Shown: positions 6,604 through 35,749 of the stretch, piece after piece
Numbering within the stretch: the stretch's first letter is position 1
Layout of the letters: every line of letters starts with the position of its first letter
Origin: a virus
Taxonomy: Duplodnaviria > Heunggongvirae > Uroviricota > Caudoviricetes
Strand: one strand, 5' to 3'
Virus record (IMG/VR): IMGVR_UViG_2585427964_000003
DNA length: 36,745 nucleotides
Translations under genes and position numbers: made by a program
The notes under the pieces: model-generated
Databases searched by the model: none
What the model saw: only the letters and a program-made list of their open reading frames with translations
What the model was told of the DNA's origin: nothing

Positions 6604-6780
6604 CCGTTTAACTCCGTGGTTAATGGGTGCAACTATTTTCTGTTGGGCAGTGCATGAGACGCTATTTGACCTGGCTGGTCAGTGGATGAAACAACAGATA
6701 AAGAAAAGGCGGGCAATCAGCTTGCCTGCCTTGATTTGTACTCTCTCTGTTTCCAACTGACAAATTACGTAACCAAAATT

Positions 6781-6796
6781 CTGTCAAATCTGACAG
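6781..6796 (-). terminator. Hairpin CTGTCA-AATC-TGACAG, followed on the minus strand by AATTTTGG; putative terminator of the 6864..7556 cargo gene
   Basis: Perfect 6-bp inverted repeat with 4-nt loop about 70 nt downstream of the minus-strand stop at 6864; short stem and short U tract, so weak. Confidence 0.3.
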
Positions 6797-6863
6797 CCTG
6801 TTTTGAGCGAAGAGCGGACCTGAGATTGTGGTATGCTAATTTATGGGGAGCAGGTCAATTGTA

Positions 6864-7556
6864 TTAGTTATCTTTTTGCTTTTCTTTATCCCATTTCTTT
6901 GCAGTGGTCTGATACCACTCTTCACGTGCTCGTTGTTCCTCGGCTCTGTCACTTGAATTATAGTTGTCTGTTTTAATTTTTTTGCTTCCCTGGGAAATCG
7001 GCCTCCAGTCTTCTCTAATCTTTTTCATCTGCTCAGCTATCTGTGTCATTGGACTCCTTGCACCTAAGTAGCTAACCCCCTCGAAAGAAGCCATATCATA
7101 AGAATACTCATTCCGCTCTCTTTCAGTTGAGCCCGGCTGTTTAGACCAGCTAATACTAACAGAATAAACTTGATCTTTAATCTGGTCATACTTACAAAGA
7201 CTGCTGTTGAGGGAATGGCCGTTTTTCAATACGCTAACCTTGCTAAATGGTATACCTTTATTTTTTCTATGTTCTGCATTAACCAGTGGGGGATTAAATC
7301 CGACTTCAATATCATAGGCTGGGGCATTTCCGGTATTAGCAATATTGATATCAAAATAAAAAGCAGCCCAAGAATTTGGTTCAAGAGTCACAACGACATG
7401 AGGTTGAACTGATGCGTCAACCATCCTTTTTGTCTCGTCTGCTAATAGCCTTGTTACTCTCCACAAGAAAAATGTAGCAACTGCTGTTAGCAATGCTGCC
7501 AAAGCGGAGATAAGTGTACTTACTGTGTTTATATGCTCTGCGATAAATTCGATCAT
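6864..7556 (-). CDS. Hypothetical membrane-anchored protein (cargo in Z/fun-equivalent variable locus)
   Basis: 230-aa ORF with AAGGA Shine-Dalgarno 7 nt upstream of ATG; one N-terminal hydrophobic helix (VSTLISALAALLTAVATFFLW), then a soluble domain and a lysine/glutamate-rich C-terminus. Visibly AT-rich compared with flanking P2 genes. No family recognised by eye. Confidence 0.6.
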   Translation of the reverse strand: MIEFIAEHINTVSTLISALAALLTAVATFFLWRVTRLLADETKRMVDASVQPHVVVTLEPNSWAAFYFDINIANTGNAPAYDIEVGFNPPLVNAEHRKNKGIPFSKVSVLKNGHSLNSSLCKYDQIKDQVYSVSISWSKQPGSTERERNEYSYDMASFEGVSYLGARSPMTQIAEQMKKIREDWRPISQGSKKIKTDNYNSSDRAEEQRAREEWYQTTAKKWDKEKQKDN

Positions 7557-8047
7557 GAGTTGTCCTTGGGGGCGTACTAATTGTTTTCAATACTAAAATA
7601 GCGCCGAGCTTGAAAAATTGCACACTTATAGTTCGATTTACCTCAACAGTTAAGGCTTCAACTTCCCCCATGCACCTCACCCAGCCCAAGACTGTATGAG
7701 GTCTGACAAAGAACTTCCTGACACTTGAAAACGAGGCAACGGCTAGGGTTTCTCGTAGGGCAAGGATTGAATACGAAGCCTGTATATTGCTCCGCGAACA
7801 CTGCTGAGGGCAGTTTAAATGTTGGGCGTTTATGTAGCCTTTCACTCACCAGCATGAGTTCAATGTCTGTGAGTTACCGACAACAATATAAAGGGGGTGG
7901 CATCATCATATATCCAAGCTAGAGTCAAATCCTCTAACTGGTTTTATGATCAGTGTCAATTGTTTGATTATTAAACGTTTACGAAGCAGCACGGGAGCCA
8001 TATAACTAATGGGCAGGTATAAGCCTGTATCACGAGGAATCAGTAAA

Positions 8048-8227
8048 ATGGCTGATGATAAGACCAAAATCGGTACCCCTGACAATGATTTAATAAGTAT
8101 CAAACAGGATTACGAGAGACGTGATTGGGCTGAAAAGTTTGGAGTTAGCGAGGCCAAACTTGTTCAAGCCGTACAGGCTGTAGGTCATTCGGCTAAGAAA
8201 GTACAGGCATGGCTTAAAGACCATTAA
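8048..8227 (+). CDS. Small DUF3606-like protein
   Basis: MADDKTKIGTPDNDLISIKQDYERRDWAEKFGVSEAKLVQAVQAVGHSAKKVQAWLKDH; the pattern (basic N-term, Y-E-x-x-W-x-x-KFGVS, AVxxVGxSA) matches my recollection of DUF3606 proteins. ATG at 8048 has an AGGAA Shine-Dalgarno; the ORF-track start at 8009 is probably upstream of the real start. Confidence 0.55.
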   Translation: MADDKTKIGTPDNDLISIKQDYERRDWAEKFGVSEAKLVQAVQAVGHSAKKVQAWLKDH

Positions 8228-8233
8228 TATATG

Positions 8234-8259
8234 AGCGCCTTTCTAGGCGCTTTTTTCTT
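8234..8259 (+). terminator. Rho-independent terminator after the DUF3606-like gene
   Basis: AGCGCCT-TTCT-AGGCGCT stem-loop (7-bp stem) immediately followed by TTTTTTCTT, 7 nt after the stop codon. Confidence 0.6.
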
Positions 8260-8332
8260 TGTCCTTTGGGAGATGATTTATGGCTAATAATGTATTACTT
8301 ACGACCTCATTAAAACGAAAGATTATGCGGCT

Positions 8333-8554
8333 GTGTATGATGCAATTAAATCTTTAGGAAATTGGGCTTTAACAACTGAATCGAACTGGTATGTTAACTG
8401 TAGTTACTCTGCCGAGGATGCAGCCAAAATTGTGAGGGCGGTCATGGATAGTGATGATAAGCTTATTGTTGTAGACGCAACCAATAACTCAGCTTATTGG
8501 TACAATCTCTCAGATGAAGTTAGTAACCAAATTCTGACTGAGTGGAACAAGTAA
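8333..8554 (+). CDS. Hypothetical small protein (GTG start in ORF track; possibly frameshifted)
   Basis: 73-aa ORF beginning with GTG and no Shine-Dalgarno. A 25-codon ORF with a strong GGGAGA Shine-Dalgarno starts at ATG 8280 in another frame and overlaps it. AT-rich. Confidence 0.35.
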   Translation: MYDAIKSLGNWALTTESNWYVNCSYSAEDAAKIVRAVMDSDDKLIVVDATNNSAYWYNLSDEVSNQILTEWNK

Positions 8555-8583
8555 TTAAAGGGGGTGGGTACCCCCCCCTTTAA
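8555..8583. terminator. GC-rich hairpin (AAAGGGGG-loop-CCCCCTTT), likely bidirectional terminator
   Basis: Begins 1 nt after the stop at 8554; lies between the plus-strand cargo genes and the converging minus-strand G gene. Confidence 0.5.
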
Positions 8584-8776
8584 TTCAGAAACTATCATGA
8601 TTGAAACATTAAATATACTGGGTTAATTCTTTCATCCTTGCTCCCTTGCTATATGTCCTGAAAGCGTCCTTTTTAGCCTTCTGCTCAGTATGTCCGGTAA
8701 TGGCACAGAGCGGACTGTCAGATTAGGCTTTACTCTGTGCCATAGATATGTAAGCTCCCACCAGAGCTCATACAAC

Positions 8777-9307: not shown

Positions 9308-11554
9308 TTATACCTGCGCCACGTTATACCATGTCCCGTTAATGTATTTCTGCACCGGTCTGTAATATACGCCACCAATGTTATCGGCAGAGTTTGAGCC
9401 GGTATCCTGAACAATAATGCCGGTATATACGCAACCTGACGGAGCCTGATGCGTCCATGTAGTACCATTATTTGCTGGTTTATATGTAGATGCACCGCCC
9501 AGCCGCATGTCTCTCACATAACGTGAATCTGACTCAGCTTTGGTGTATGCACCAACATCTCCCGCTGAGGGTTTTCGTGTTGTGGTATAGAAATCAGACC
9601 AGCCAGATTCAAAACCATAACCATCACGGGCTGACCTGTAAGATATACCGCCATTTTTATAATTCACACGAAACTGTACAGCCGGGCAGCTACCAGCATT
9701 TATATTAAAGTGAAGAATTAATGCAGATGCTCCCCCAATCAGAGCGTTGTATGCGCCACTGTCCCAATTCCATCCAACGGCTGTATCACCATTAACCGTA
9801 TTACCTGTCTGCCGAAGTGCAAATGCACCGACATTTCTGGCATTAAGGGTAATATCTCCAGAACCATCAAAGGCAACACCTGCTATTTTCCTCGGTGTTT
9901 CGAGTTTTGAGGCTGTTGCAGCATTTCCTGAAAGGTTGGAAATAAATGGATGTGAGCAGTAATAACCGCGCCCATTTTTAAAATCCAGAATAGCCTGTGC
10001 GTTCGTGCTTTCTGTAGCGGGATTAGTTGCCCCCCACTTATATGTCGTTTGACCGACGACATAATCCTCTGTCGGAACAATAACCGTTAGCCCTTCCTCT
10101 GCAAGAATTTGCACAGGGAAAGCTCTGGCTTCAACATAAAAAACACTACATACATCATCATCTTTCAGGCTTGTAACAATGGAATGGATTGAACGCTCAT
10201 TGGTCTGATACGTCCAGAAATAACCTGCCGCATATGAACCACGATCAGTCCATCCTCCGGGCATAACCATGCCATTAAACTCGCAGTTATTCATTACATA
10301 ATCGCCGTTATAACAACCAGTGGAAATAACGACGCGGGATGCCATTTCTCCTGAAAGGCTGGCAGCACGGCGAAAGATAACGGGATACCACTTCCCGGCA
10401 ACGACATTTGCAGGGGCTGCAAACGAATACTTTCGCATTCCCTTTTTCTTATCCACTTCACCTTTGCTGTAAACATTAATGTTACTCAGGAAGCGTTCTT
10501 TATCAGGAATATCCGCACCGTTCTGATCTTTCTGAAGACGTTTTTCAGCATTGTCATTGGCAGACTTCACCGCTTTTGGTGTTGCGGCCAGCGTTTCAGA
10601 ATCACTGTTGGTGGCGCTACTTAGCTGGACAAGACCTTTTCGCGCTGTGGTGGCATCCTGTGCAGTGTATTTCCCGTTAGCAAGGTCATACGCTGTCTTA
10701 ACCGCCTTTGGCGTTGCGGCCAGCGTTTCAGAATCGCTGTTGGTGGCACTACTGAGCTGAACAAGGCCTTTTCGCGCGGTGGTGGCGTCCTGCGCGGTGT
10801 ATTTGCCATTAGCAAGGTCATATGCTGTCTTAACTGCCTTCGGCGTTGCTGCGAGCGTCTCAGATTCGCTGTTGATGGCACTACTTAGCTGAACAAGACC
10901 TTTTCGCCCCGTGCTGGCGTCCTGAGCGGTATATTTTCCGTTAGCAAGGTCATACGCTGCCTTAACCGCTTTCGGCGTTGCAGCCAGCGTTTCAGATTCA
11001 CTATTGGTCGCGCTGCTTAACTGAGTAAAACCTTTTGCAGTCAGTGAGGCGTCCGGGTGGCGTCGTGACTGTTCGTGTTCTGCAATTTTGTCATCAACGT
11101 AATCCTGCGTCGCCATCACCGTTGTGGTGTCAATGGTCAGATCCACTGAGGCCACACTGCTGACGATAATGACCATGCGGCAGGTCTGCGAACGTCCTGA
11201 GCCTTCGGCAAGGGCTGGCTTATAACTTTCGGCCATGTTCGCCACGGCAATTAACGTTCCCGCATCATCGTACAGGCCAAGCTCACGCATCCAGAAACCG
11301 CCCACCTCCGGCGGAATAACCAGCTCTGCGATAATATAATTACTGTTTCGTTTGTCCTGGCTGATTTTGTTCAGCGCATGTCGCCAGACTTCGTGGATAA
11401 GCCCGGTCTGTCCGGCATCCGGGACAGGCAATTTACCACCGCCATCCCCGACGGCCATCGTGGTAATGTTGACCTTCCGCCCTCCCGGCGCGGTTGCCGC
11501 TGCCAGCTTTGCTGCACCGGCAGTGGTGATAACGGTTTTGAATTTTGTGCTCAT
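9308..11554 (-). CDS. H: Tail fibre protein gpH
   Basis: 748-aa ORF; N-terminus MSTKFKTVITTAGAAKLAAA... typical of P2-like H; contains tandem phage tail-fibre repeats (SETLAATPKAVK.AYDLANGKYTAQDA). Confidence 0.9.
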   Translation of the reverse strand: MSTKFKTVITTAGAAKLAAATAPGGRKVNITTMAVGDGGGKLPVPDAGQTGLIHEVWRHALNKISQDKRNSNYIIAELVIPPEVGGFWMRELGLYDDAGTLIAVANMAESYKPALAEGSGRSQTCRMVIIVSSVASVDLTIDTTTVMATQDYVDDKIAEHEQSRRHPDASLTAKGFTQLSSATNSESETLAATPKAVKAAYDLANGKYTAQDASTGRKGLVQLSSAINSESETLAATPKAVKTAYDLANGKYTAQDATTARKGLVQLSSATNSDSETLAATPKAVKTAYDLANGKYTAQDATTARKGLVQLSSATNSDSETLAATPKAVKSANDNAEKRLQKDQNGADIPDKERFLSNINVYSKGEVDKKKGMRKYSFAAPANVVAGKWYPVIFRRAASLSGEMASRVVISTGCYNGDYVMNNCEFNGMVMPGGWTDRGSYAAGYFWTYQTNERSIHSIVTSLKDDDVCSVFYVEARAFPVQILAEEGLTVIVPTEDYVVGQTTYKWGATNPATESTNAQAILDFKNGRGYYCSHPFISNLSGNAATASKLETPRKIAGVAFDGSGDITLNARNVGAFALRQTGNTVNGDTAVGWNWDSGAYNALIGGASALILHFNINAGSCPAVQFRVNYKNGGISYRSARDGYGFESGWSDFYTTTRKPSAGDVGAYTKAESDSRYVRDMRLGGASTYKPANNGTTWTHQAPSGCVYTGIIVQDTGSNSADNIGGVYYRPVQKYINGTWYNVAQV
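10560..11035 (-). repeat. Tandem repeat, period 132 bp (44 aa), about 3.6 copies, inside gene H
   Basis: The GCGTTTCAGA motif recurs at 10591, 10723, 10855 and 10987 (spacing exactly 132 bp); the protein shows four near-identical 44-aa units. Confidence 0.85.
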
Positions 11555-17575: not shown

Positions 17576-17779
17576 TTACTCCCACAGATTGACAGTTTCA
17601 GCCACGGGCGCGGTCTGAACGTCGGGCAGTTCGACAGCGGTGCCGTGTGGCAGCACCGCACCCAGTTCAGCCAGTCCCGGATTTGCGGCGAGCACGGTCT
17701 CAACCACGCCCTCAGTGCGCCCGTAATACCGGACACAGATGGCGTCGAGCGTGTCGCTCTGTAGCGCAAAGGTCTTCAT
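17576..17779 (-). CDS. X: Tail protein gpX
   Basis: ATG at 17777-17779 (MKTFALQSD...) gives 67 aa as in P2 X; the start overlaps the L stop as ATGA. The ORF-track start at 17848 is upstream of this. Confidence 0.85.
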   Translation of the reverse strand: MKTFALQSDTLDAICVRYYGRTEGVVETVLAANPGLAELGAVLPHGTAVELPDVQTAPVAETVNLWE

Positions 17780-18288
17780 CAGATTTGACTCACGATGCAG
17801 CGCGGCTTGTCCTGGATACGCGCCACCGCCCAGCGCATATCCCGCCACAGTTCATCAATGGTGCTGTCAATGCTGTCAGCCTTCTTGTCACCTTTCGCAC
17901 TGGCATCCACGCCGCGATAACGCTCATAAAGCGACGCGGTCGCCATCGCACACACGGCGCGCTCGTAGTAAAAAACTTTGATGCTTTCACCGTCGATGTC
18001 GTCCGCCGGGACGTCCGCCAGACGCGTAAAACCGGCAGCAATTTTCTGTTCGCGGTACTCGTACAGCTCCGCATTCGTTTCAGCCATGCCTGACTTGATG
18101 GCCTCACGCAGACGGGCGGGGGCGACGGTCTGCTCAAGGCGCATACGTTCCCGGACGCGCTTCGGATCGATATCGGGAAAAAAGAACGTGTTTTTAATCA
18201 CCGGCTCGTCGCCTGCCGGTTGCGGGATGACCACCGTACCCTCACCGGACACGGGAGCCTCCTTTCGCGGAATAATCAGCGTCATCAT
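17779..18288 (-). CDS. L: Head completion protein gpL
   Basis: ATG-ATG at 18283-18288 (MMTLIIPRKE...) with a GAGGTAG Shine-Dalgarno gives 169 aa as in P2 L; the ORF-track start at 18348 is probably too far upstream. Confidence 0.85.
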   Translation of the reverse strand: MMTLIIPRKEAPVSGEGTVVIPQPAGDEPVIKNTFFFPDIDPKRVRERMRLEQTVAPARLREAIKSGMAETNAELYEYREQKIAAGFTRLADVPADDIDGESIKVFYYERAVCAMATASLYERYRGVDASAKGDKKADSIDSTIDELWRDMRWAVARIQDKPRCIVSQI

Positions 18289-18387
18289 GACTACCTCTGA
18301 AAAGTCGGGCGGTGGACGCCGGTGCAGTGTCAGGTGATTCACCCTCACTGACCGGCGTGCCGCCCTGGCGCGGGGCGCATTCGGTTG

Positions 18388-18465
18388 TTAACTGGCTTTC
18401 TTTTTCGGGCGTCCACGTTTTGCCGGTGTCACGCTCCGGGTCTTACGTGGGGCGCGGGTGGCCGC
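18388..18465 (-). pseudogene. M: Orphaned 3' end of terminase gene M, separated from its 5' part by the IS insertion
   Basis: Manual translation of the minus strand from the left target-site duplication reads in-frame AATRAPRKTRSVTPAKRGRPKKKAS-stop (TAA at 18390-18388), continuing the M frame interrupted at 21047. Confidence 0.7.
18461..18465. repeat. Target-site duplication GCCGC (left copy) of the IS21-family element
   Basis: GCCGC directly abuts the left IS terminus TGCGTATT...; an identical GCCGC at 21047-21051 abuts the right terminus. Confidence 0.7.
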
Positions 18466-18658
18466 TGCGTATTTTCATGAAAGGAGATCACTCAATAACT
18501 TCCATCGAGATCGGGTAATAACATTTGAACAGATCGCTGAATAACATCGATGGAGATCACTTTTGACTCATTTTGTTATTCAGTGATCTCCATCAATGTT
18601 ATTGGAACTTCACAGGTGTGTTGATCTGTATCTTTTGCCATTCCGGTAAAGGATACCT

Positions 18659-20200
18659 ATGCCAACAGTTCCAATTTCTATGAGAAAACTTAAAGAAATT
18701 CTTAGGCTTAAATACGGTGTTGGACTCAGCCATCGACAAATTGGTCGTAGTCTTGCAATCTCCCCTTCCGTTGTATCCAGATATGCTAATCGGGCGGCTC
18801 AACTTGGCATAAAGCAGTGGCCCTTACCTACAGGATGGGATGATACAAAACTAAAACATGCGTTCCTTCAGACCCAGGTTAAGATGAAGAAGCACTCTCT
18901 GCCTGACTGGGCTACAGTACACCGGGAACTGCGTAATAAATGCGTGACGCTGCAGCTACTCTGGGAAGAATACTGTGAGCGTAATCCAGGCGGTTTTTAC
19001 AGCTATAACCATTACTGCCGGATGTACCGTGAATGGCTCAAAACCACTTCACCATCAATGCGTCAGGTACATAAAGCTGGCGAAAAACTTTTCGTTGATT
19101 ACTGTGGACCTACCGTTGGCGTTACCGACCCTGAGACCGGAGAAATAAGAACTGCTCAGGTCATCGTAGCTGTTCTCGGGGCATCAAGTTACACATGGGC
19201 AGAGGCCACCTGGTCTCAGCAGCTTGAAGACTGGGTGATGAGTCATGTTCGCTGCTTCCAGTGGTTGGGTGGCGTTCCTGAACTTGTTGTTCCGGACAAT
19301 CTGAAAAGCGCCACATCCAGGGCATGTAAGTATGATCCTGACGTTAACCCTACCTACCAGCAGATGCTTGAGCATTATAATGTCGCAGTTTTGCCTGCGC
19401 GGCCACGTAAACCGAAAGATAAAGCCAAAGCTGAAGTTGGCGTTCAGGTTGTTGAACGCTGGATCATGGCCCGAATCAGGCATGAGATCTTCTACAGCCT
19501 TGCATCGCTTAATCAGCGCATTCGGGAGTTGCTGGAAAGACTGAATAACAAAATAATGCAGAAGTTGGGTTATTCACGTGCAGAACTCTTCATCCAGCTT
19601 GATAAACCCGCACTGAAGCCTCTTCCTGAAGCCAGTTACAGTTACACCCTGGTGAAGAAAGTCAGAGTTCATGCCGATTACCACGTGGAAATCGACAAAC
19701 ATTACTACTCGGTTCCATGTTCGCTGTTAGGCCAGCAACTGGAAGCATGGATCTCCGGAGAACTGGTAAGACTCTTCAATCAGGGGCAGGAGGTTGCTGT
19801 GCACCCGCGCAAGCGTACTTATGGCTACAGTACCCGCAACGAGCACATGCCTGAAGCTCATCGACAGCATGCCACCTGGACGCCAGAGCGTCTTCTGGAA
19901 TGGGCGGGGCACATAGGCAGTGAAACTCATAGTTATGTGCTTCATATACTGAACTCTCGTCCACATCCGGAACAAAGCTATCGCTTCTGCCTTGGACTCC
20001 TGAACCTTCATAAAAAATACAGTAAAGCCAGACTTAATGCAGCATGTGCAAGAGCTCTGAAAACAAAGGTATGGCGTCTGTCAGGTATTAAATCGATCCT
20101 GGAAAAAGGTCTGGATAAACAACCTGTTCAGGATCCAAAACCAGATCTGTTATCCACGATGGAACACGAAAACGTACGCGGCAGTGAGTATTACCACTGA
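18659..20200 (+). CDS. istA: IS21-family transposase IstA
   Basis: 513-aa ORF with N-terminal helix-turn-helix (LSHRQIGRSLAISPSVVSRY) and a DDE-type integrase core; AAGGA Shine-Dalgarno before the ATG. Confidence 0.85.
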   Translation: MPTVPISMRKLKEILRLKYGVGLSHRQIGRSLAISPSVVSRYANRAAQLGIKQWPLPTGWDDTKLKHAFLQTQVKMKKHSLPDWATVHRELRNKCVTLQLLWEEYCERNPGGFYSYNHYCRMYREWLKTTSPSMRQVHKAGEKLFVDYCGPTVGVTDPETGEIRTAQVIVAVLGASSYTWAEATWSQQLEDWVMSHVRCFQWLGGVPELVVPDNLKSATSRACKYDPDVNPTYQQMLEHYNVAVLPARPRKPKDKAKAEVGVQVVERWIMARIRHEIFYSLASLNQRIRELLERLNNKIMQKLGYSRAELFIQLDKPALKPLPEASYSYTLVKKVRVHADYHVEIDKHYYSVPCSLLGQQLEAWISGELVRLFNQGQEVAVHPRKRTYGYSTRNEHMPEAHRQHATWTPERLLEWAGHIGSETHSYVLHILNSRPHPEQSYRFCLGLLNLHKKYSKARLNAACARALKTKVWRLSGIKSILEKGLDKQPVQDPKPDLLSTMEHENVRGSEYYH

Positions 20201-20211
20201 TACGGGATCCA

Positions 20212-20961
20212 ATGATGAATCATCTTTACGAACAACTGACCGCACTTAAACTCACCGGCTTCCGTGATGCGCTTAAAAAGCAACTTGCTCAGCCGGGCAC
20301 ATACCAGGAGCTGGGCTTCGAAGAACGCCTGTCATTACTGACAGCAGAAGAACTAACCTGCCGTGAAAACAGGAAGGCAGAGCGTCTGATCAAACATGCA
20401 CGGTTCAGACTTAATGCTGAGTTATCAAAGCTGGATTATCGTAACAATAGAGGGCTGGACAGGGCCCTCATCCGTTCACTCAGTCAGGGAAACTGGTTAA
20501 CCCTGAAACAAAATATTTTACTGACCGGGGCCACCGGCAGCGGTAAAACGTTCCTGGCATGTGCACTTGGTCATAATGCCTGCCGACAGGGATACAAGGT
20601 CTACTATTATCGCCTTAAAGCGCTGATGGAACAGTGCTATCAGGGGCATGCTGATGGAAGATACAGCAAACTTTTGACCAGGCTGAATAATAGCGATCTG
20701 CTGCTTCTGGATGACTGGGGGCTGGAACCTCTCTCATCAGAACAGCGTAGCGACCTGCTGGAAATAGTGGATCTGATGTACCAACGAGGCTCAATCATCG
20801 TAGTGAGCCAGTTGCCGGTGGAAAACTGGTACAAAATGATCGGAGACTCCACACATGCGGATGCCATCCTAGATCGACTGGTTCATGGCAGTATCAAGAT
20901 CGAACTTAAAGGAGAATCAATGCGGAAAATACAATCTCCGTTGACCGAAGGAGATCAGTGA
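20212..20961 (+). CDS. istB: IS21-family ATP-binding helper protein IstB
   Basis: 249-aa ORF with Walker A (GATGSGKT) and Walker B (LLLLDDWG), the typical IstB AAA+ architecture, immediately downstream of istA. Confidence 0.88.
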   Translation: MMNHLYEQLTALKLTGFRDALKKQLAQPGTYQELGFEERLSLLTAEELTCRENRKAERLIKHARFRLNAELSKLDYRNNRGLDRALIRSLSQGNWLTLKQNILLTGATGSGKTFLACALGHNACRQGYKVYYYRLKALMEQCYQGHADGRYSKLLTRLNNSDLLLLDDWGLEPLSSEQRSDLLEIVDLMYQRGSIIVVSQLPVENWYKMIGDSTHADAILDRLVHGSIKIELKGESMRKIQSPLTEGDQ

Positions 20962-21018
20962 AGGTAATTTAAAAACGGTTCTGTGAAAGTGACACGAACC
21001 GATCTCCATCGATGTTAC

Positions 21019-21711
21019 TCACCGATCTCCTTCACGGTAATACGCAGCCGCTTTGGGCTGCGGCTTCGGTTTCAGCTCCCGCTCCAGTCGTTCAATCTCT
21101 TTTTTGACGCCTGCCTGACAGTCGAGCTGTGTCGCACGTTGCAGGTGCGCCAGCGCCCCTGCGGCATCACCAGCGTCACGCAGAAACAGACCGGTGATTT
21201 TGTGCAGCTTTGCGCGCACTTCATCAGGCATGTCTGCCGTGGCGGTAAGTTCAAGGGTGTCCGTCAGCAGGCGGGTATCCACGGATTCACCGGCAGCGTG
21301 AGCGCGCATGGCCGCGAGTGCCACTTCCTCGGTGAACATGTACGGCGGGGTGCGGCGGTGTTTACCCGGCATGGTCAGACCGTACTTCAGGGCATAACGG
21401 GCAATCTCCAGCGCACCGGCAATATCGCCGGTATCCAGACGCCACAGCATGACCGTCATCAGAATGTCATCCTGTGCACCTTTGCCCTGCTCCAGCACGC
21501 CGTTCACCCACGGCAACCAGAACGGCAGCAGTTCGCGTTTTTTCGCGGCCTTCAGCTCTTTTGAATAAATCGCTTTCAGTGTGCGCTGGTCTGCGGCGAG
21601 CTTAACCAGCATCTGCTCATAGACAGTTGCATGTCGCAGCGGGGCGGCTTCCCGCTGCGCGGTCATCGCTGCCGAGACCCGCATCATGTGGCGCTGTGCG
21701 GGACTCGTCAT
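21019..21711 (-). pseudogene. M: Terminase small (endonuclease) subunit gpM, 3' end interrupted by IS insertion
   Basis: 230-aa ORF MTSPAQRHMMRVSAAMTAQ...; its last 8 codons (AYYREGDR-stop) are encoded by the IS right terminus. Native sequence runs up to the GCCGC duplication at 21047-21051. Confidence 0.8.
21047..21051. repeat. Target-site duplication GCCGC (right copy)
   Basis: Identical 5-mer to 18461-18465, directly flanking the right IS terminus. Confidence 0.7.
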
Positions 21712-27016: not shown

Positions 27017-27901
27017 TCAGGCGCAAGTTGGCATTGAGACCCCTTTCAGGGTATTAGGAATAATTATTTCAGGAGAAAAAATCATCACTTCCTCTCCAGA
27101 TTTTTTGAGATGTGCTGTATATTGCAATGAATACTCAACTTGCGGAAATCCATTATAAATATCTTTAATTTCCTTAGCGTTATCATAAGAAACAAGCCAA
27201 TTTGGGAAATTAATTTCTGTGAGTTTCTTCATAACCAATACATGGTCATCATGCTCATAAAAATTCCTGTAAAGCCCTTGCCCTTTAATATAGTAAGGAG
27301 GATCCAAATACAAAAGAATTTTATTTTTATCCACCTTTCCCATATTATCCATAAAATTCAAGGCATCAAGAAAATCCAAAGCATCCAGATTAGTTACTAC
27401 TATTCTTTGATTATAATTTGCTATCTTCTCAATTCTTGAAATTAAATCCGCCCTGTTAAAGCGAACATCCATTTTCCATTTTCCATTTTGTGATTTCCCG
27501 CCTATAACCCCCGCCTTGAGAATACCTGAACGATTTGTTCTATTTAAGAAAAACGCAGCAAAGCCAACCTCAAGCTTAGTAAACTCAGAAGGATTCGAAA
27601 TAACATAGCGATGAAAAGACCATTCATCCATATCTATCTTTGCTCGGCTAATAAGTCGGCAAAGCTCATCAGTATCACTAACAACAGATGACCAAAAAGA
27701 ATAAACAGCAAAATCTGCATCATTTATATAGATTTTACGGACATACTCTTCCAATAATAATTCTAAAGCCACCCCTGCACCACCAGCGTAAGGTTCTGCA
27801 TATGCTCCATCATTCAACGAGTTTTTTTCAATAACATCTTTTAAAAAGTAAGATAACTTACCTTTCCCGCCGGGGTATCTTAATGGAGTATAAAATTTCA
27901 T
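27017..27901 (-). CDS. Dam-class (D12 family) N6-adenine DNA methyltransferase
   Basis: 294-aa ORF with GAGGG Shine-Dalgarno; motifs YPGGKGKL near the N-terminus, PYAGGAG (SAM-binding FxGxG-like) and LDPPYY (catalytic DPPY). Strongly AT-rich; lies in the tin/old-equivalent position. Confidence 0.8.
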   Translation of the reverse strand: MKFYTPLRYPGGKGKLSYFLKDVIEKNSLNDGAYAEPYAGGAGVALELLLEEYVRKIYINDADFAVYSFWSSVVSDTDELCRLISRAKIDMDEWSFHRYVISNPSEFTKLEVGFAAFFLNRTNRSGILKAGVIGGKSQNGKWKMDVRFNRADLISRIEKIANYNQRIVVTNLDALDFLDALNFMDNMGKVDKNKILLYLDPPYYIKGQGLYRNFYEHDDHVLVMKKLTEINFPNWLVSYDNAKEIKDIYNGFPQVEYSLQYTAHLKKSGEEVMIFSPEIIIPNTLKGVSMPTCA

Positions 27902-27970: not shown

Positions 27971-29476
27971 TCACTCACTCCAAATAAGGCTTAATAACAA
28001 CTCAAAGTTATCCCACTCAGTGTTGACAGCCTCTTTTGAGGGAATTAAGTGTGGGTTATGTACATACTGCTGCAATGAACCATCATGTTTAGTTATTTGG
28101 CTCGAGAAAGTTATTACAGCCGTACATTGACTCCCCGTCATCTTTTTATTTTCCCGAAGGAAATTAGCACACATTTTAACCTTATCATGAAGCCCTGGAG
28201 TTCTATGTGGTTCCTTAAATTGTAACTTGTTTTCTTCAACAAAAGTGCTTACAGAGAGATCTATAAATATTCTCAACAATATTGAGATAGCATTAGGGGT
28301 GTTATCAAATGTCAGATGCGACTTAAGCTCATTAAATATTCTAGAGCATTTCTTATGCCCTCTAAAATTAAATTTCACATAAGATGGCACCAACACATTA
28401 CGATCTACTTTAGGAGGAGTTTTTCCCTTGTTTTTATTCTGTTCCGTGCCCGAAACTTTAGATTTACTCTCTTCTGTGCCTACATGTCTAGAATAATCAT
28501 CTTCCTGTTTATCCACACCTGTATTCTTTAAGGCATCACCTTCTGAAAGACCTACTTTCTTTACACTCACAGATGCATCATTTTTGTCAATAGAATCATG
28601 TTTTTTCTCTGTAAGAAAAGATTTAGGCTCCAGTAAACTCCACGGCTTATCTAAAAGAGATTCTGAAGGTTTTATTTTTTGTTCAATAATAAATGTAACC
28701 CTGTCATCTTGGCTACGAATCCTATTAACAGTAAAACAAGCCTTACCTTTATCATCCTCTTCAATCATTACATCTAAAATATTTTTTAATTGTGCACAAA
28801 AACGTTCATAAGGCTGATATGAGTATAGAACTCCATTAATGCTTTTTAAATTAAAATAATCCCTCACCTTTAAATCACCAAAAAGACGCGTGATGTTTGT
28901 GATTTTTAAAAGTCTTTTTTTAGCAATTATCTCTTTATATAAATCAGTATTGAACTCTATAAATGTAAGTATTTGATTACCAAATGACTGCTTACCCATC
29001 CTAGCCAGATGTCGTGCTTTTTCTGTTGCAGTCCATTCAACTCTTCCAACTCCAGCATTTTGACCAGTATGCTTTAAATTGACCCAATGCTCATATTCAT
29101 CATCGTCAAAAAGAACGCAGTTATCTATAACATTAATATCTTTAAGCTGAGTAATCTTAAGTTTTTCAAAAGCTTTCCGTGCTTTTTCTGTTGGTGCAAG
29201 TCTAGGAGAGTGTAAAAGTTTAAGGGCTGTAACTCGACGATTACCTTCAGCAACGACGAAAAAGCCAGATTCCTCTTCACTAGGATAAACTAATATGTTT
29301 TCAGACGGATCTAAACCTTTCGAAGCAATATCTTTAGCCAAGCGATAAATGCGGTCGTACTGCAAGTCAAGCATCTTGGCAATAGCATCACGCTGATTTT
29401 CTGCTGACGTCGGGAAACGAGGGTTATCAACATCCAAAAGTAACTTATTGATATTCATTGATTTTAGTTGATTCAT
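27971..29476 (-). CDS. ParB/Srx-fold nuclease-domain protein with long C-terminal extension (cargo gene)
   Basis: N-terminal region LLLDVDNPRF ... ILVYPSEEESGFFVVAEGNRRVTALKLL carries the ParB N-terminal domain signature (GxRR). A Lys/Glu/Ser-rich low-complexity linker is followed by a roughly 150-aa C-terminal domain of unrecognised type. Start chosen at ATG 29474-29476 (AGAGGA Shine-Dalgarno 8 nt upstream, 501 aa); the ORF track extends to 29545 (524 aa). AT-rich. Confidence 0.7.
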   Translation of the reverse strand: MNQLKSMNINKLLLDVDNPRFPTSAENQRDAIAKMLDLQYDRIYRLAKDIASKGLDPSENILVYPSEEESGFFVVAEGNRRVTALKLLHSPRLAPTEKARKAFEKLKITQLKDINVIDNCVLFDDDEYEHWVNLKHTGQNAGVGRVEWTATEKARHLARMGKQSFGNQILTFIEFNTDLYKEIIAKKRLLKITNITRLFGDLKVRDYFNLKSINGVLYSYQPYERFCAQLKNILDVMIEEDDKGKACFTVNRIRSQDDRVTFIIEQKIKPSESLLDKPWSLLEPKSFLTEKKHDSIDKNDASVSVKKVGLSEGDALKNTGVDKQEDDYSRHVGTEESKSKVSGTEQNKNKGKTPPKVDRNVLVPSYVKFNFRGHKKCSRIFNELKSHLTFDNTPNAISILLRIFIDLSVSTFVEENKLQFKEPHRTPGLHDKVKMCANFLRENKKMTGSQCTAVITFSSQITKHDGSLQQYVHNPHLIPSKEAVNTEWDNFELLLSLIWSE

Positions 29477-29832
29477 CAACATATCCTCTGTTGAATCTTT
29501 ATGATAAAAATTAATTATTTTTATCATAAATGATAGCGTAAACATAGTCTTATGAACGACATCAGCCCTGAAGCTTCAAAACTATCATTTACGTTTGCGA
29601 GGCACCATCTATCACATTGATTTATAATAAGTATCTTTATCTTCACTGCATTGCTCTCAAAAAATCACATAGATGGAAATTCCCCGTTGACACACTCCCA
29701 AGTGATGCAGATACATTTCAAGTGCTTCATACACATGATAACGGCTATCCCCCTAAATTCTGTGCGTTTCTTTTCCCTCCAGCACAAGGTTGAAATATCT
29801 TGCGTGCAGCTTTACTTTGTGAATCTTTGTCA

Positions 29833-32124
29833 TTATATCCGCGCCATTACTGTTGAGAATCCCGGCCACTCATCAGCGACCGGATACGTGAATTTTTTCC
29901 CGTCATAATTTACGGTCGCGCCACGCGCCAGCACCTCAAGCTCCCATCGTTGCGGCCTGATACCGTTCTGAGCGAGGTCAACGCGGATACGGGTAATTTG
30001 CAATCGTTCCGACCGGGTCAGTCTGGCCGACGGTGCTATTTCATGCGGTTTTAACGGGCTTCCGGCTCTTTGCTGACGATTTGGTGTTCTCAGTCCGTGT
30101 TTTAATGCGCCCCTGAGCGCCCTCACGACCTCCGGGTCATTCCATTCGATAACACCGTCATCAACCAGATTAAGCACTGCTGCGACGTGCTCAGAAGGTG
30201 TGGGAGCCGGTAACGAAGTATCACCACTGGTGAGCTTTCCACAGTTATTGACAGGACTCCGAGGCGCGGCGATGCCGCTTTTTAAAGTCAAAGGCTCAAC
30301 GACCGGAACTTTCAGCACAATGCGCCAGTCCGTCGTTCTGGTGATATGAATATGACGCGCGCCGAGATGCGGCGCGTAAATGCCGACCACTCTCTCGACT
30401 TCTTCCTCATACTCGTTAACGTCATCTGACGGGCTACGGGCGACCCTGACAGTCTGACAATCGCGCGGGACATTTGCCCCACCCTGCGCGCTGATATACA
30501 ACGCAAAATCACCACTGTCTGCGGCGGCGCGTGCAGCCTCGACGCGTTCGTCAAACTCATCAGCAATGCTGACGCCGCGAGGCAATTTGCGTAGCTCACG
30601 GTAAGCCCCCATTGTCGGCAGGCCAACCGTTTTAAATTGCGGGATGCGCCACGTTGACGCCCATGCGGTAACAGCCGCGGCAGTATCTTTAAGCGGCTTA
30701 CCGGTATCGTTATCGAGCTGACCATCCAGTGCATAGCCGTCGATATTTTTTGAAATGTATTTCGCGATATATCCCGCAGCACCGCCCCGGTTAAGGTGTT
30801 TTGCCTGAAAACGGTTTCGCGCAGCGCCTCTTTCGTCACCATCCTCTTTGAGCGCATAGCGACGCATGATTTCGATAATCTGGTTACGCTGGCGTGGATT
30901 ACAAAAAAGCATCATATGCCAGTGCGGCGTTCCGTCGTGGTGTGGCTCGACGACACGCAAACCGTAGACCTGTAAATCATTATCCTTGAATGCCGTGCGC
31001 ATCAGGCTCCAGATACGGCAGAGATAACGCTGCGCATCCTTTGGATTAAATGCCTCATCGTTCCAGCCGTGATTAAGCTGAACGGTTTTACTTTCGCCTT
31101 TTCCGACCTGACGTGTCGGGTGATACTTTGACGGCGCGGTCAGCGTGATAAACATCCCCACATCACCCTCTGCGGCGGCGTAACGCTCAATACCGGCAAT
31201 GGTGTTCATCAGCTCCATCCGGCGAATTTCAGGATTAGAAATACTGCCCATCACCTTACTGATAAGGTCGATGCGCTCGCCGGTTTCCCTGTTTTCAAGG
31301 TCACACGATTTAAGAAATTCCAGATTTGCCTGGCGGCGCGCACGCACATCACGAATGGCATGTTTACTGGCATAAGGAGAACGGTCTTTATTGACCTCCC
31401 CGACAGCTATCAGTAAAGCTTCATGCCAGCGCATACGCTGGCCTTTAAGCTGATGAGTCCACCACTCATCGTTAAACAGGCGGGCAATGGCAGAATATGC
31501 CTGCCTCGTGGTTATCTGTCCTTTACGGTATTTTTTCCAGTAGAGCGGGGAAATATTGAAAGCACGTGCAGCGCCAGCAACATGACCATACAGATGATCC
31601 TGCGCCTCATCCGTAAACAGTGATTCTTTTTCGCCATGCGCATCCACCCAGGCATCGCAGAGTTCCTCATACATCATGAAAAGCTGCGATGAAATACGGG
31701 CGGCAAACTTTTTCAGCTCCTTGTCATTCATCCCCGGCAGACGCGCATAGTGGTCACGCTCAGCCAGAAACAGCAACGACGCGTCGGTGTTCATTTCATG
31801 GCGCTGATTCACGCGCTCAATGCGCGGCCATAAACGACGCTGAAAAGTGGATGTGAGGAAATAAAACCCGTGTACCGGGCTTTTATTGCGCCGGATGTAG
31901 TCATAGCGTGAAGTAAACAGCGAGCGCAAAAAGTAAGGCAGGCGGTTAATCGTGGATAAAACCCCTTGCACCTGACGCATCTCGTCACGTGTAAGGGGTC
32001 TTTCGCGCCCGACGGCCTCGCGTGGCGCGTTCCATGCATAAGCACCGGTAAACGTCTTACCGGTGCCTGCAGCAAATGCTGACGTAGTTACGCAGGTGTA
32101 TTGCTCCTGGAAAGAATGACTCAT
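29833..32124 (-). CDS. A: Replication initiation endonuclease gpA (rolling-circle)
   Basis: 763-aa ORF MSHSFQEQYTCVTTSAFAAGTGKTFTGAYAWNAP...; size and position match P2 A (about 761 aa from memory). Confidence 0.92.
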   Translation of the reverse strand: MSHSFQEQYTCVTTSAFAAGTGKTFTGAYAWNAPREAVGRERPLTRDEMRQVQGVLSTINRLPYFLRSLFTSRYDYIRRNKSPVHGFYFLTSTFQRRLWPRIERVNQRHEMNTDASLLFLAERDHYARLPGMNDKELKKFAARISSQLFMMYEELCDAWVDAHGEKESLFTDEAQDHLYGHVAGAARAFNISPLYWKKYRKGQITTRQAYSAIARLFNDEWWTHQLKGQRMRWHEALLIAVGEVNKDRSPYASKHAIRDVRARRQANLEFLKSCDLENRETGERIDLISKVMGSISNPEIRRMELMNTIAGIERYAAAEGDVGMFITLTAPSKYHPTRQVGKGESKTVQLNHGWNDEAFNPKDAQRYLCRIWSLMRTAFKDNDLQVYGLRVVEPHHDGTPHWHMMLFCNPRQRNQIIEIMRRYALKEDGDERGAARNRFQAKHLNRGGAAGYIAKYISKNIDGYALDGQLDNDTGKPLKDTAAAVTAWASTWRIPQFKTVGLPTMGAYRELRKLPRGVSIADEFDERVEAARAAADSGDFALYISAQGGANVPRDCQTVRVARSPSDDVNEYEEEVERVVGIYAPHLGARHIHITRTTDWRIVLKVPVVEPLTLKSGIAAPRSPVNNCGKLTSGDTSLPAPTPSEHVAAVLNLVDDGVIEWNDPEVVRALRGALKHGLRTPNRQQRAGSPLKPHEIAPSARLTRSERLQITRIRVDLAQNGIRPQRWELEVLARGATVNYDGKKFTYPVADEWPGFSTVMARI

Positions 32125-33128
32125 TCACATACACCGGCATAGACACTACTGCAAACGGCTTTATCATTCGCCGAAGCCAGTAAATCAAACTGAGTACCCC
32201 CACGCGTTGTCATTGTCCAGTCATGGTAGGTTTCTATTCCGTATGCCTCGACTGTTACAATCTCAATACGACGTTCTGCGCGTAGCGGATCATGTGTGGA
32301 TGGGAAAAAAGTGGAATTTCCCCGACGGGAGCACGACGCAACCAGTCGTTCCCATTCAGCAACCCGTTTTATTTCCTCCGGCCACCGGCGAAAAATTTCT
32401 GCCAGTTCAGATTTACGGACATGAATACATGGCATACAACCAACACGGCCACACCCCTGCTGATATAACGGATTTGGCTTAATGTCATGTCTTCTGGCTA
32501 TTGCAAATACATCTTCATGCTTCCAGTGCAAAATCGGGCGATATACATGCAATCCGGGGGTGTTGTCTGCATCCTCTTCCCAGACAGGTAAAGCAGCGCG
32601 TGATGGCGATTCCTGAGCACGCACTCCCTGCCAGCTAATCACTTCCTCAAATTCATTGAGTAAAGGCAATATTACCTGAGAACGCACGGGCTCATGTTTC
32701 AGTTCAAATGTGCAAAATCTGGCTTTGGTTGATGGGAAACGCCCCTTCCACAGACACAAATCAAGAAACGGGATACCCGTTGGTTTGAGAATTTCCAGCG
32801 CACAACTGATGCGCTGGTGCGCTTCTTCTTCCGACATTCCACAATCGTTAACCAACAAATCAGGCCATTTGGTCTGGATAAACTTGCGCTTTGATTCAAT
32901 CCGGCAGGAAAAATCAGCTCTGACTCTTTTAATTGGGCCAAGCCGTTTTTCCAGATAATCCAGATATTTCATTGTCTGTGGATGTTCATGTCCCGTATCA
33001 GCAAAAACCGGCAATATGGGTACATTTTCTTCAATAGCGACAAGCCACTGAGCAAGGCTGTCCTTTCCACCTGAAACAAAAATAACATTGATGGTATTTT
33101 CAGTATGGCAACGAGCATCAGTAATCAT
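32121..33128 (-). CDS. PAPS reductase / DndC-like PP-loop ATP pyrophosphatase family protein
   Basis: 335-aa ORF with N-terminal PP-loop VIFVSGGKDS and a C-terminal cysteine cluster (GCGRVGCMPC). Start overlaps the orf83-like stop and its stop overlaps the A start (ATGA at both junctions). Confidence 0.75.
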   Translation of the reverse strand: MITDARCHTENTINVIFVSGGKDSLAQWLVAIEENVPILPVFADTGHEHPQTMKYLDYLEKRLGPIKRVRADFSCRIESKRKFIQTKWPDLLVNDCGMSEEEAHQRISCALEILKPTGIPFLDLCLWKGRFPSTKARFCTFELKHEPVRSQVILPLLNEFEEVISWQGVRAQESPSRAALPVWEEDADNTPGLHVYRPILHWKHEDVFAIARRHDIKPNPLYQQGCGRVGCMPCIHVRKSELAEIFRRWPEEIKRVAEWERLVASCSRRGNSTFFPSTHDPLRAERRIEIVTVEAYGIETYHDWTMTTRGGTQFDLLASANDKAVCSSVYAGVCE

Positions 33129-34714: not shown

Positions 34715-34947
34715 TTCCATACCCTCCGGCTTTTCAGAAAGGTCAGAGCCTTTTTTAACGGACTCTGTTTTTTGGTGCGGATAATGATTCCCTTGCGTCC
34801 CTTCCCGTGGGTGATGGTGAAGTCAATCGCCCTGGGGCTTTCGTTACGCAGTAACTGAGCAATACAACGAGGCTCGTTCATCCTTTCCACCTTAAGCCGC
34901 ACGGCCATGTCTTGATTTGCTGTAACTAATGCGATTTTTCCAGTCAT
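34711..34947 (-). CDS. P2 orf78-like small basic protein (start uncertain)
   Basis: ORF 34711..35001; the internal start MTGKIALVTANQDMAVRLKVE... would give 78 aa. The stop overlaps the B start. Start not resolved (candidates at 35001, 34968, 34947, 34908). Confidence 0.4.
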   Translation of the reverse strand: MTGKIALVTANQDMAVRLKVERMNEPRCIAQLLRNESPRAIDFTITHGKGRKGIIIRTKKQSPLKKALTFLKSRRVWK

Positions 34948-35263
34948 GCCATTCTGTCGGAGCTTCATCAACCAGTTGGGCTGCGTACTTGTCCCACTCA
35001 CGGCGATTAATCCATAATTCAGCTTTCCCTCTTGGTTTTAATGGGTCTGTCATGTAGAAGGCTGGCAGCTTTCCTGCTTTAGCCATTTCAGCCACCGCGC
35101 GTGGTGTCTTACCGATGTAAAGAGCAAAACCTTCTTTCGACAGCAAATCAGATGGGCGCTCTGAAATCTGAATGCTTTTACGTTTGGCTTCATTTTCGAA
35201 ACTTGCCTCATCGCTAGTTGGACAAGAAATTTCTACATTTGTCGTCACTTTGCTATCCTCCAT
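34892..35263 (-). CDS. cox: Cox-like excisionase / transcriptional regulator with N-terminal extension
   Basis: C-terminal two thirds (FALYIGKTPRAVAEMAKAGKLPAFYMTDPLKPRGKAELWINRREW) fit the pattern recalled from P2 Cox. The 123-aa ORF is about 30-45 aa longer at the N-terminus than P2 Cox (91 aa), so the true start may be downstream or non-ATG. Confidence 0.6.
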   Translation of the reverse strand: MEDSKVTTNVEISCPTSDEASFENEAKRKSIQISERPSDLLSKEGFALYIGKTPRAVAEMAKAGKLPAFYMTDPLKPRGKAELWINRREWDKYAAQLVDEAPTEWHDWKNRISYSKSRHGRAA

Positions 35264-35266
35264 AAG

Positions 35267-35319
35267 ATTTGCGATTCACCAACTGGAGCCATCTAGAGCC
35301 TTTTTGAGTGAATCGCAAA
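35267..35319. promoter_or_regulatory. Perfect 13-bp inverted repeat ATTTGCGATTCAC (27 bp spacer) GTGAATCGCAAAT in the cox-C divergent control region; candidate operator
   Basis: Read directly from the sequence; spans the intergenic region between the divergent cox-like and C genes. Confidence 0.5.
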
Positions 35320-35333
35320 TTGCCAAGTAACAA

Positions 35334-35339
35334 TATAAT
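35334..35339 (+). promoter_or_regulatory. Candidate -10 hexamer TATAAT for the repressor promoter (Pc)
   Basis: Perfect TATAAT 18 nt upstream of the C ATG; no convincing -35 at 17 bp spacing (AATCGC), so weak. Confidence 0.3.
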
Positions 35340-35356
35340 TGGAGATTAGCAAAATT

Positions 35357-35656
35357 ATGTCAAGTAAACAAAGTGAGAAACTAAAGCTCATCCGTGAATC
35401 CGAACGCCTTAAAACTAAGGAACTTGCTGAATTAATTGGAATTAATTACTACACATATCATGGATATGAATCAGGAAAATCAAAAATGCCTATGGAAGCA
35501 GGTATGAAGCTGTTTAAGCATCCACGCTTTCGCAAGTATCGTGACTGGTTCATGTTTGATGAAACAGATCCAGCAGCTGGACAAATAGCCCCGGCTCTCG
35601 CACACATTGGGCAAGACTCAACAACCTTGCACCACTCAGACCAGAAGACTGGCTGA
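35357..35656 (+). CDS. C: Immunity repressor C
   Basis: ATG at 35357 with a GGAG Shine-Dalgarno gives 99 aa (the P2 C length); helix-turn-helix region LKTKELAELIGINYYTYHGYESGKS and C-terminus GQIAPALAH.GQ...QKTG resemble P2 C from memory. The ORF-track start at 35339 is a TTG. Confidence 0.85.
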   Translation: MSSKQSEKLKLIRESERLKTKELAELIGINYYTYHGYESGKSKMPMEAGMKLFKHPRFRKYRDWFMFDETDPAAGQIAPALAHIGQDSTTLHHSDQKTG

Positions 35657-35749
35657 CGATTTATTCAGCATATGTGTGTAGTAAATGTACGAAAGAAAAT
35701 TGCATTAATTTTCAAGTAGTAGAAGTAAACAGCGTCATCGGAGGGCTTT

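Follow-up and report, generated by a model that had tools for sequence, protein, structure and literature searches.

An ISEc12 insertion in terminase gene M of a P2-like prophage

Insertion sequences of the IS21 family generate target duplications of 4-8 bp. Their ends are TG...CA terminal inverted repeats built from several IstA-binding motifs (PMC10122671), and the prototypes IS21 and IS5376 (PDB 8B4H, 8Q4D, 8Q3W, 5BQ5) combine such multi-repeat ends and a short target duplication with an istA-istB gene pair, encoding a DDE transposase and an AAA+ helper. For ISEc12 a 5-bp target duplication has been published, with ACTGC as an example, and the copy in tssM of EC958 (ST131 clade C) has the same 5-bp duplication and inactivated its gene by simple insertion (PMC10711316). 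In phage P2 the small terminase subunit gpM (247 aa) is the product of gene M, and a single O operon comprising O, N, M, L, X, Y, K, lysA, lysB, R and S is given in the P2 record.

The window, i.e. the whole stretch of 36,745 nucleotides of viral DNA that was analysed, carries an IS21-family element with the following parts.

18466..21046, plus strand: ISEc12, IS21-family insertion sequence, 2581 bp (100% identity to E. coli copies; ends as in nine others)
18466..18603, plus strand: left terminal inverted repeat region with terminal TGCGTATT and three sub-terminal GGAGATC-core repeats, L1 at ~18476-18499, L2 at 18540-18561 and an inverted copy at 18582-18603 (repeat search, motif listing)
18659..20200, plus strand: istA, DDE transposase, 513 aa (NCBIfam transpos_IS21, Pfam rve, Mu-transpos_C_2)
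20212..20961, plus strand: istB, AAA+ helper ATPase, 249 aa from the first ATG (Pfam IstB_IS21, NCBIfam IS21_help_AAA)
20947..21046, plus strand: right terminal inverted repeat region with terminal AATACGCA and three GGAGATC-core repeats, cores at 21024-21030 and 21001-21007 on the minus strand and an inverted copy at 20950-20956 (repeat search, gapped end alignment)

The organisation of the element is that of the IS21 and IS5376 prototypes. Both genes are on the plus strand, istA followed by istB after 11 bp (in RefSeq the istB start of identical copies is placed one codon later, at 20215). IstA matched transpos_IS21 (1.3e-92, 310 bits, cut-off 160), rve (2.7e-10 over residues 139-252) and Mu-transpos_C_2 (2.6e-16 over 322-385), and its N-terminal region gave a weak sigma-70 region-4-like helix-turn-helix (HTH) match at about residues 11-46. 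Candidate catalytic residues are D147, D213 and E259; in the alignment with IS5376 IstA (structures 8Q4D/8B4H, 3e-13) these fall on acidic positions, and the VD(Y/W), (P/F)DN and K(A/V)E motifs are conserved. The predicted protein is accordingly arranged as expected for the family, a DDE (RNase H-fold) IstA with an N-terminal HTH and a beta-barrel after the predicted catalytic core. IstB matched IstB_IS21 (2.2e-67, 227 bits), IS21_help_AAA (1.8e-80, 270 bits, cut-off 200) and the IS5376 IstB structures 8Q3W/8Q4D/5BQ5 (2e-27), and contains both the Walker A (GATGSGKT, 106-113) and the Walker B motif (LLLLDDWG, 163-170) of an AAA+ IstB. On the other hand, the E-values against IS5376 reflect a distant relationship, the ISEc12 IstA has an extra C-terminal region of ~120 aa (513 aa versus ~400 in IS5376), and ISEc12 differs from both prototypes in having a third, inverted sub-terminal repeat at each end.

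The element runs from TG to CA, with coordinates checked base by base, and has a lower G+C content (47.4%) than the remainder of the window (50.6%). Its outermost bases form an 8/8 terminal inverted repeat, and a gapped end-to-end alignment extends the likeness between the two ends to ~50 bp when one gap is allowed. The GGAGATC-core repeats, three at each end, are putative IstA-binding motifs of the kind that marks the family; all seven GGAGATC occurrences of the 36.7-kb window lie inside the element, six of them within ~130 bp of an end. At the thresholds used, a promoter scan detected no sigma-70-like site, either ahead of istA or directed outward from the ends. Only weak terminator-like matches were seen on the minus strand of the element (region total for both strands 8, expected 3.0 +/- 1.7). 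Scans of the complete window for Rfam families and tRNA genes were negative.

More than 1,700 E. coli records match the element with a query coverage of 80% or more; among the matches listed the best cover positions 1-2581 at 100% identity, in E. coli chromosomes and plasmids. Identical 2581-bp copies are labelled 'IS21-like element ISEc12 family' by RefSeq/PGAP, with the products IstA WP_001298859.1 and IstB WP_001016257.1, and it is on this annotation that the name ISEc12 rests. ISEc12 is a multicopy element, present at a median of 3 places per carrying genome. Nine other independent copies, retrieved with their flanks, are each exactly 2581 bp long with the same ends and unrelated flanking bases. 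The first-pass annotation had proposed an IS21-family element of this extent, bounded by imperfect inverted repeats and encoding an IstA with HTH and DDE features and an IstB with Walker motifs; its boundaries and its 513-aa istA and istB proved exact to the base, and the family, domain and terminus assignments agree with the profile matches and the nine copies.

The element is flanked by a direct repeat and by the two parts of gene M.

18388..18465, minus strand: orphaned 3' end of gene M with its stop codon (aligns to P2 gpM residues 223-247)
18461..18465, no strand: GCCGC target-site duplication, left copy (read directly; same as 21047-21051)
21019..21711, minus strand: interrupted gene M, small terminase subunit, ORF of 230 aa (ORF list, Pfam Phage_term_smal, alignment)
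21047..21051, no strand: GCCGC target-site duplication, right copy (read directly)

The insertion site is codon 222 of the 245-codon gene M, 23 codons before its stop, and istAB are oriented opposite to M. The remaining product, M', consists of residues 1-222 of intact M followed by eight IS-encoded residues (AYYREGDR) and ends at a stop inside the right end of the element; codon 222 now ends in the first base of the IS, a silent change. The whole Phage_term_smal domain is kept (2.6e-48 over residues 35-164), and the tail that M' has lost is a basic stretch of 23 residues, TRAPRKTRSVTPAKRGRPKKKAS, retained in the orphaned end. There, P2 gpM residues 223-247 are found at 100% identity by tblastn (18465..18391), the first two aligned residues overlapping the duplicated GCCGC.

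Deletion of 18466..21051, i.e. the element plus one repeat, gives M back an uninterrupted frame of 245 aa. The reconstructed 260-bp empty site is 100% identical, without gaps, to six E. coli prophages whose 'terminase endonuclease subunit' is intact, and 97-98% identical to P2, R18C and other Peduoviruses. The restored protein matches the uninterrupted 245-aa M of strain 789 (WP_000203442.1) at 100% identity. To P2 gpM it is 99% identical over 245 aa, and the entire C-terminal tail is shared (23 of 23 residues). It differs from gpM by a 2-aa deletion (EP), and the gene is a gpM-type small terminase gene that is split in the window and currently cut short by the IS. Uninterrupted M genes have a single GCCGC at the insertion point.

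Once the ends are taken as given, the flanks would agree over 5 bp by chance with a probability of ~1/1024. Among the nine other ISEc12 copies the duplication is 5 bp in seven, 7 bp in one and 8 bp in one, so the 5-bp duplication at M agrees with seven of the nine and with the published case (PMC10711316), and lies within what defines the family. The ten duplications (GCCGC, CTGAC, CCGTT, GCATA, ACTGG, CGGTT, CTCTG, CCCAC, ATTAAAG and ACCATAGA), taken together with the published ACTGC, reveal no obvious target consensus. A 6-bp reading (GCCGCT) was considered, as a T follows both GCCGC copies (18466 and 21052), and was rejected since every copy of the IS starts with this same T. The earlier claims of a 5-bp duplication, of an M frame restored by removing the element and one repeat, and of an empty site that should align to intact M genes were thus all borne out.

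Taken together, the locus almost certainly arose by a single simple transposition of ISEc12 into gene M of a P2-like prophage; none of the results speaks against the insertion as such. According to published IS21 work (PMC11208146, PMC10122671), IstA, the DDE transposase, would bind the multi-repeat ends and bring them into synapse, whereas the AAA+ ATPase IstB would assemble on the target DNA, bend it, and recruit and activate IstA. The two 3'-CA ends would then be joined to the target at positions staggered by 5 bp, and the staggered joining followed by gap repair would give the GCCGC duplication.

The host of the insertion is a P2-like (Peduovirus) prophage that is otherwise intact. All 28 tested late and regulatory genes (Q through ogr), plus A and B, are present in P2 order (ogr-D...L-M-N-O / P-Q), most P2-homologous proteins are 92-100% identical (lower for G, orf30 and the distal part of H), and the other P2 genes of the window are full length and free of stops. 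The immunity/integration module is divergent from P2 (int 53%, C 51%, cox 35%). Genes for integration, immunity and replication are intact, as is a PD-Lambda-5 anti-phage defence cassette. Downstream of the insertion in the late operon are L, X, Y, K, lysA, lysB, lysC, R and S, down to 14924, the first of these being:

17779..18288, minus strand: gene L, head completion (tblastn, full-length, 99.4% to P2)

The first-pass annotation had called the transposition clean and probably recent. Clean it is, with a perfect duplication and an exact empty site; recency is plausible and weakly testable, and no date is possible. A 140-bp query across the left junction gave only two-piece matches in 5,426 complete E. 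coli genomes (from ISEc12 elsewhere in M), and neither the GTDB species representatives nor the JGI metagenome contigs contained a 26-nt junction word. As the junction was found in no collection searched, the event is, going by these collections, private to its source lineage. Besides the absence of the junction elsewhere, the perfect duplication, the intact istAB and the otherwise intact prophage speak for a recent event.

The insertion could instead be real and old, fixed in a lineage missing from the searched collections, which we consider rather unlikely. The 100% identity of the element carries no information about age, because ISEc12 is nearly invariant (0-1 mismatches among ten copies) and IS identity is therefore no clock. 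Moreover, ISEc12 can persist as a clade marker, as in tssM of ST131 clade C (PMC10711316), and the closest prophages in complete genomes are 95-99% identical, so close relatives of the source are unsampled. No near-identical IS-free parent prophage was found among the matches to complete E. coli genomes, the best 12-kb match to the prophage being 99.2% over 91%. Strains 789 and A5 were rejected as parents; their empty site is 100% identical over 260 bp, but the prophages are only 95-98.5% identical, with different cargo and immunity regions. What weighs against great age is that the junction is absent from all three collections and that secondary decay is not seen in the other prophage genes, the duplication or istAB.

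The insertion would place 2.6 kb of foreign DNA between the late promoter P_O with O-N-M and L, X, the holin and endolysin genes, lysA/B/C, R and S. Because the element parts these genes, the prophage is most likely unable to form infectious particles or to lyse its host efficiently. From the sequence we infer loss of M function together with polarity on L through S. M' retains the Pfam small-terminase domain, and the main damage may be the polarity on downstream genes. The retained domain and the weakness of the terminator-like matches on the minus strand of the element count against these two effects. It is very improbable that the insertion is phenotypically silent, with a working M' (222 + 8 aa), read-through into L-S and a viable prophage carrying ISEc12 between hosts. 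Such a reading could draw on the wholly kept domain at residues 35-164 and on the presence of ISEc12, at 100% identity, in four deposited phage genomes (PhiR12_1, _2, _2_star and _4). However, these phages, at 52-54 kb, do not belong to the P2-like group and have the IS near tail-fibre-assembly genes. The identity of the lost tail to P2 at 23 of 23 residues suggests constraint, the antisense 2.6-kb element lies in the operon upstream of the essential L, X, R and S, and the ogr-to-int span of 36,745 bp is ~9% longer than the whole of P2 (33,593 bp).

A mis-assembly instead of a true insertion, in which a repeat copy was collapsed into the prophage contig, is extremely improbable. ISEc12 is multicopy, and short-read assemblies often break or mis-join at such elements, but a mis-join would not give a perfect 5-bp duplication with flanks contiguous in the M frame, and comparable insertions occur at many other P2-like prophage sites in finished genomes. 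That the GCCGC repeats are coincidental, with true ends elsewhere or an adjacent deletion or rearrangement on arrival, was tested and can be rejected with hardly any reservation, since the GC-rich locale does hold similar words (GCGGC at 21060-21064) but full-length matches and nine copies with their own duplications establish the ends independently, and excising exactly the IS and 5 bp yields a sequence that occurs naturally, without gaps or missing bases.

ISEc12 is also found in the P2-like late-gene block of complete E. coli genomes, with duplications of 5 bp, occasionally 7 or 8. Compared to the ISEc12 copies annotated in RefSeq, such as the one in tssM of EC958, only the target is different here, codon 222 of M. 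The S88 lineage has the element in N; D5/elppa10, AVS0051 and AVS0193 in M; and 64.1 in the L-M spacer. Further sites in P2-like prophages are in O, S, lysA, P, Q, T and V, and all these insertions are at nucleotide positions different from the codon-222 site. An ISEc12 copy lies no more than a few kb from M in about 40 of the ~1,494 complete E. coli genomes with this M region; many different sites are occupied, and both orientations are represented. For uniformly random placement a rough estimate is 2-3 genomes. With respect to the late operon, the element is oriented as here in 26 genomes and the other way in 14, without strong bias, the genomes not being independent events. A minor question is raised as to why ISEc12 is so frequent in P2-like late genes. 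That it genuinely prefers this block, for example through IstB choosing bendable DNA by its structure, rather than being merely tolerated there, we regard as quite unlikely.

In summary, a known element, acting by a known mechanism with a common outcome, has brought about what is most likely a routine IS inactivation of a prophage. The locus is best annotated as a P2-like prophage with gene M disrupted by ISEc12, probably defective in particle production and lysis. Since the two junction sequences turned up in none of the collections searched, they could serve epidemiology as a lineage marker. If the target preference were true, the M insertion would be one more case of recurrent IS-driven grounding of P2-like prophages in which the defence cargo is kept.

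Direct reading and script indexing of 18300..21250 placed the element and its flanking GCCGC repeats at exactly the positions proposed in the first-pass annotation, which had described an IS21-family insertion in gene M (small terminase subunit) with a 5-bp target-site duplication. The features of the insertion are listed below.

18461-18465, left GCCGC repeat, from direct sequence reading
18466..21046, ISEc12 element, 2581 bp, beginning TGCGTATT and ending AATACGCA
18659..20200, istA open reading frame (ORF), 513 aa, same strand as istB
20212..20961, istB ORF, 249 aa, same strand as istA
21019..21711, minus strand, interrupted M ORF (M'), 222 native residues plus AYYREGDR
21047-21051, right GCCGC repeat, from direct sequence reading

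Nine other independent ISEc12 insertions, recovered with both flanks, were each exactly 2581 bp with the same TG and CA ends; each had unrelated flanks and only 0-1 base different from the copy in the window. Their direct repeats were 5 bp in seven cases, 7 bp in one and 8 bp in one, and a 5-bp duplication (ACTGC) has been reported for ISEc12 in ST131 tssM (PMC10711316). With the ends fixed independently, the chance of a 5-bp flank match is approximately 1/1024. A 6-bp repeat, GCCGCT, was ruled out because the T is the invariant first base of the element. Within the coding sequence of M, the target pentamer also forms an arm of a short inverted repeat (GCCGC-N8-GCGGC, 21043..21064), terminator-like by consensus scan and probably incidental.

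The 513-aa protein matched the NCBIfam model "IS21 family transposase" (310 bits, cut-off 160) as well as Pfam rve and Mu-transpos_C_2, and the 249-aa protein matched Pfam IstB_IS21 (2e-67) and the NCBIfam "IS21-like element helper ATPase IstB" (270 bits, cut-off 200). Both align to the solved structures of the IS21-family element IS5376 (IstA to 8Q4D/8B4H, 3e-13; IstB to 8Q3W/8Q4D/5BQ5, 2e-27), and IstA D147, D213 and E259, IstB Walker A (GATGSGKT) and Walker B (LLLLDDWG) are present. The similarity of the two ends runs on for ~50 bp once a single gap is allowed. A GGAGATC-core motif occurs three times at either end, twice as a direct and once as an inverted copy, the same multi-repeat terminal architecture as described for the IS21 family (PMC10122671). 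GGAGATC occurs seven times in the 36.7-kb window, always inside the element, and six of these words are no more than ~130 bp from an end. In DNA sequence, many chromosomal and plasmid copies in E. coli match the full 2581 bp at 100% identity, and 1,909 of 5,426 complete genomes have a match; from the RefSeq product name of identical copies ("IS21-like element ISEc12 family") and literature usage, the element is assigned to ISEc12.

Deletion of 18466..21051 gave a 260-bp empty site, which was found at 100% identity and ungapped in six complete E. coli genomes, inside an intact "terminase endonuclease subunit" gene, and at 97-98% identity in phage R18C, P2 and ~100 other Peduovirus records. The comparison with intact M genes named in the first-pass annotation was thereby passed. 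The restored ORF (245 aa) matches the intact M of E. coli strain 789 (WP_000203442.1) at 100% identity and P2 gpM at 99%. Three substitutions and an indel of 2 aa separate it from gpM, and its 23 residues 3' of the junction are the same as in P2. Ends, duplication and empty site all agree, and support an IS21-family insertion into M.

The window extends from the ogr stop to the int stop and is therefore essentially one P2-like prophage. A tblastn search with 33 P2 proteins showed that all genes except M are full length and stop-free, with the late genes in P2 order and mostly 92-100% identical; int, C and cox diverge (53%, 51% and 35%). The insertion falls at codon 222 of 245 of M, so that M' retains the complete Pfam small-terminase domain (residues 35-164) and loses the basic tail TRAPRKTRSVTPAKRGRPKKKAS. 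Since the P2 record shows a single O operon (O, N, M, L, X, Y, K, lysA, lysB, R, S), the element, with istAB antisense to it, would part the promoter from at least nine downstream genes. This anatomy suggests that M has lost its function and that the insertion is polar on the genes from L to S. The tail-fibre gene H (9308..11554, minus strand) encodes 748 aa versus 669 in P2; two tandem segments (10802..11554 and 10538..10789) match P2 H residues 168-251, and in the C-terminal, receptor-binding part identity to P2 falls to ~36%.

The prophage also carries the following cargo and immunity genes.

6604..8776, Z/fun cargo hotspot, between tail sheath FI and tail-fibre assembly G
6864..7556, 230-aa ORF in the Z/fun hotspot, phrog_11802
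27017..27901, minus strand, PD-Lambda-5 gene B, type II-like DNA methyltransferase, 294 aa, 1e-121
27971..29545, minus strand, PD-Lambda-5 gene A, 524 aa, PADLOC 6e-168
32121..33128, minus strand, PAPS-reductase-domain protein, 335 aa, Pfam 5e-35, phrog_424
34881..36745, immunity/integration module, 35-53% identical to P2
34892..35263, cox-like gene, 123 aa
35339..35656, C-like gene, 105 aa
35750..36745, int, 331 aa

The two-gene PD-Lambda-5 anti-phage system (27017..29545, minus strand) occupies a cargo hotspot flanked by portal gene Q and replication gene A, the site of tin/old in P2, and is intact alongside the IS-interrupted late operon. The PAPS-reductase-domain gene, directly downstream of replication gene A, has weaker SspD/BrxP/DndC-like matches and is without counterpart in P2. 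The 230-aa ORF had no Pfam or PADLOC match, the following ~1.2 kb held no ORF >80 aa except an overlapping 142-aa GTG ORF, and an Rfam search of the Z/fun hotspot gave no match; in related prophages this site is taken up by an S1 peptidase or abortive-infection gene. Given its low identity to P2, and since it showed no DNA-level alignment to the IS-free P2-like prophages of E. coli strains 789 and A5, the module gives this prophage a different immunity and att specificity.

The exact junction was absent from 5,426 complete E. coli genomes, GTDB species representatives and JGI metagenome contigs, and the source genome had no close relative in these collections (best prophage matches 95-99% identical). 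A recent, lineage-private event fits, because the duplication is perfect, istAB intact and the prophage otherwise undecayed, and the insertion is likely recent. Sequence identity gives no clock, as copies of ISEc12 hardly differ from one another wherever they occur.

When IS21-family elements transpose, a tetramer of IstA brings both repeat-bearing ends into synapsis; decamers of IstB bend the target DNA, recruit IstA and activate it, and strand transfer takes place at the kink (PMC11208146, PMC10122671). By analogy, an IstA tetramer would have paired the ends of ISEc12, with IstB decamers kinking the target in M and bringing in and activating IstA; staggered joining and gap repair would then yield the short duplication. 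Element and mechanism are both known and the type of target is common, so that the finding is not new in kind.

ISEc12 is also present, full length and at 100% identity, in four Escherichia phage genomes of 52-54 kb (PhiR12_1, _2, _2_star and _4; PV340549.1, PV340550.1, PV340551.1 and PV340553.1), near a tail-fibre assembly gene and annotated as hypothetical proteins only.

In complete E. coli genomes (among them those we label L001, L002, L007 and L012-L017) ISEc12 has inserted many times, and independently, in the late region of P2-like prophages. Sequence-verified sites are the L-M spacer, M (two other positions), N, O (two positions), S, lysA and the S-V spacer; a third other M position (AVS0193) is indicated by the spacing of a two-piece junction match, and sites in P, Q, T and V by annotation only. 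Within a few kb of M the element was found in 40 genomes (same orientation as here in 26, opposite in 14), far above a rough expectation of ~2-3 under random placement (~1 place per genome, a ~7.6-kb stretch in 5 Mb, ~1,494 genomes that have the M region). These insertions shared no target consensus and were not strongly biased in orientation. A true target preference for the P2-like late region is a possible but less likely explanation of the recurrence; the simplest is that selection on the inactivation of prophages is relaxed or positive.
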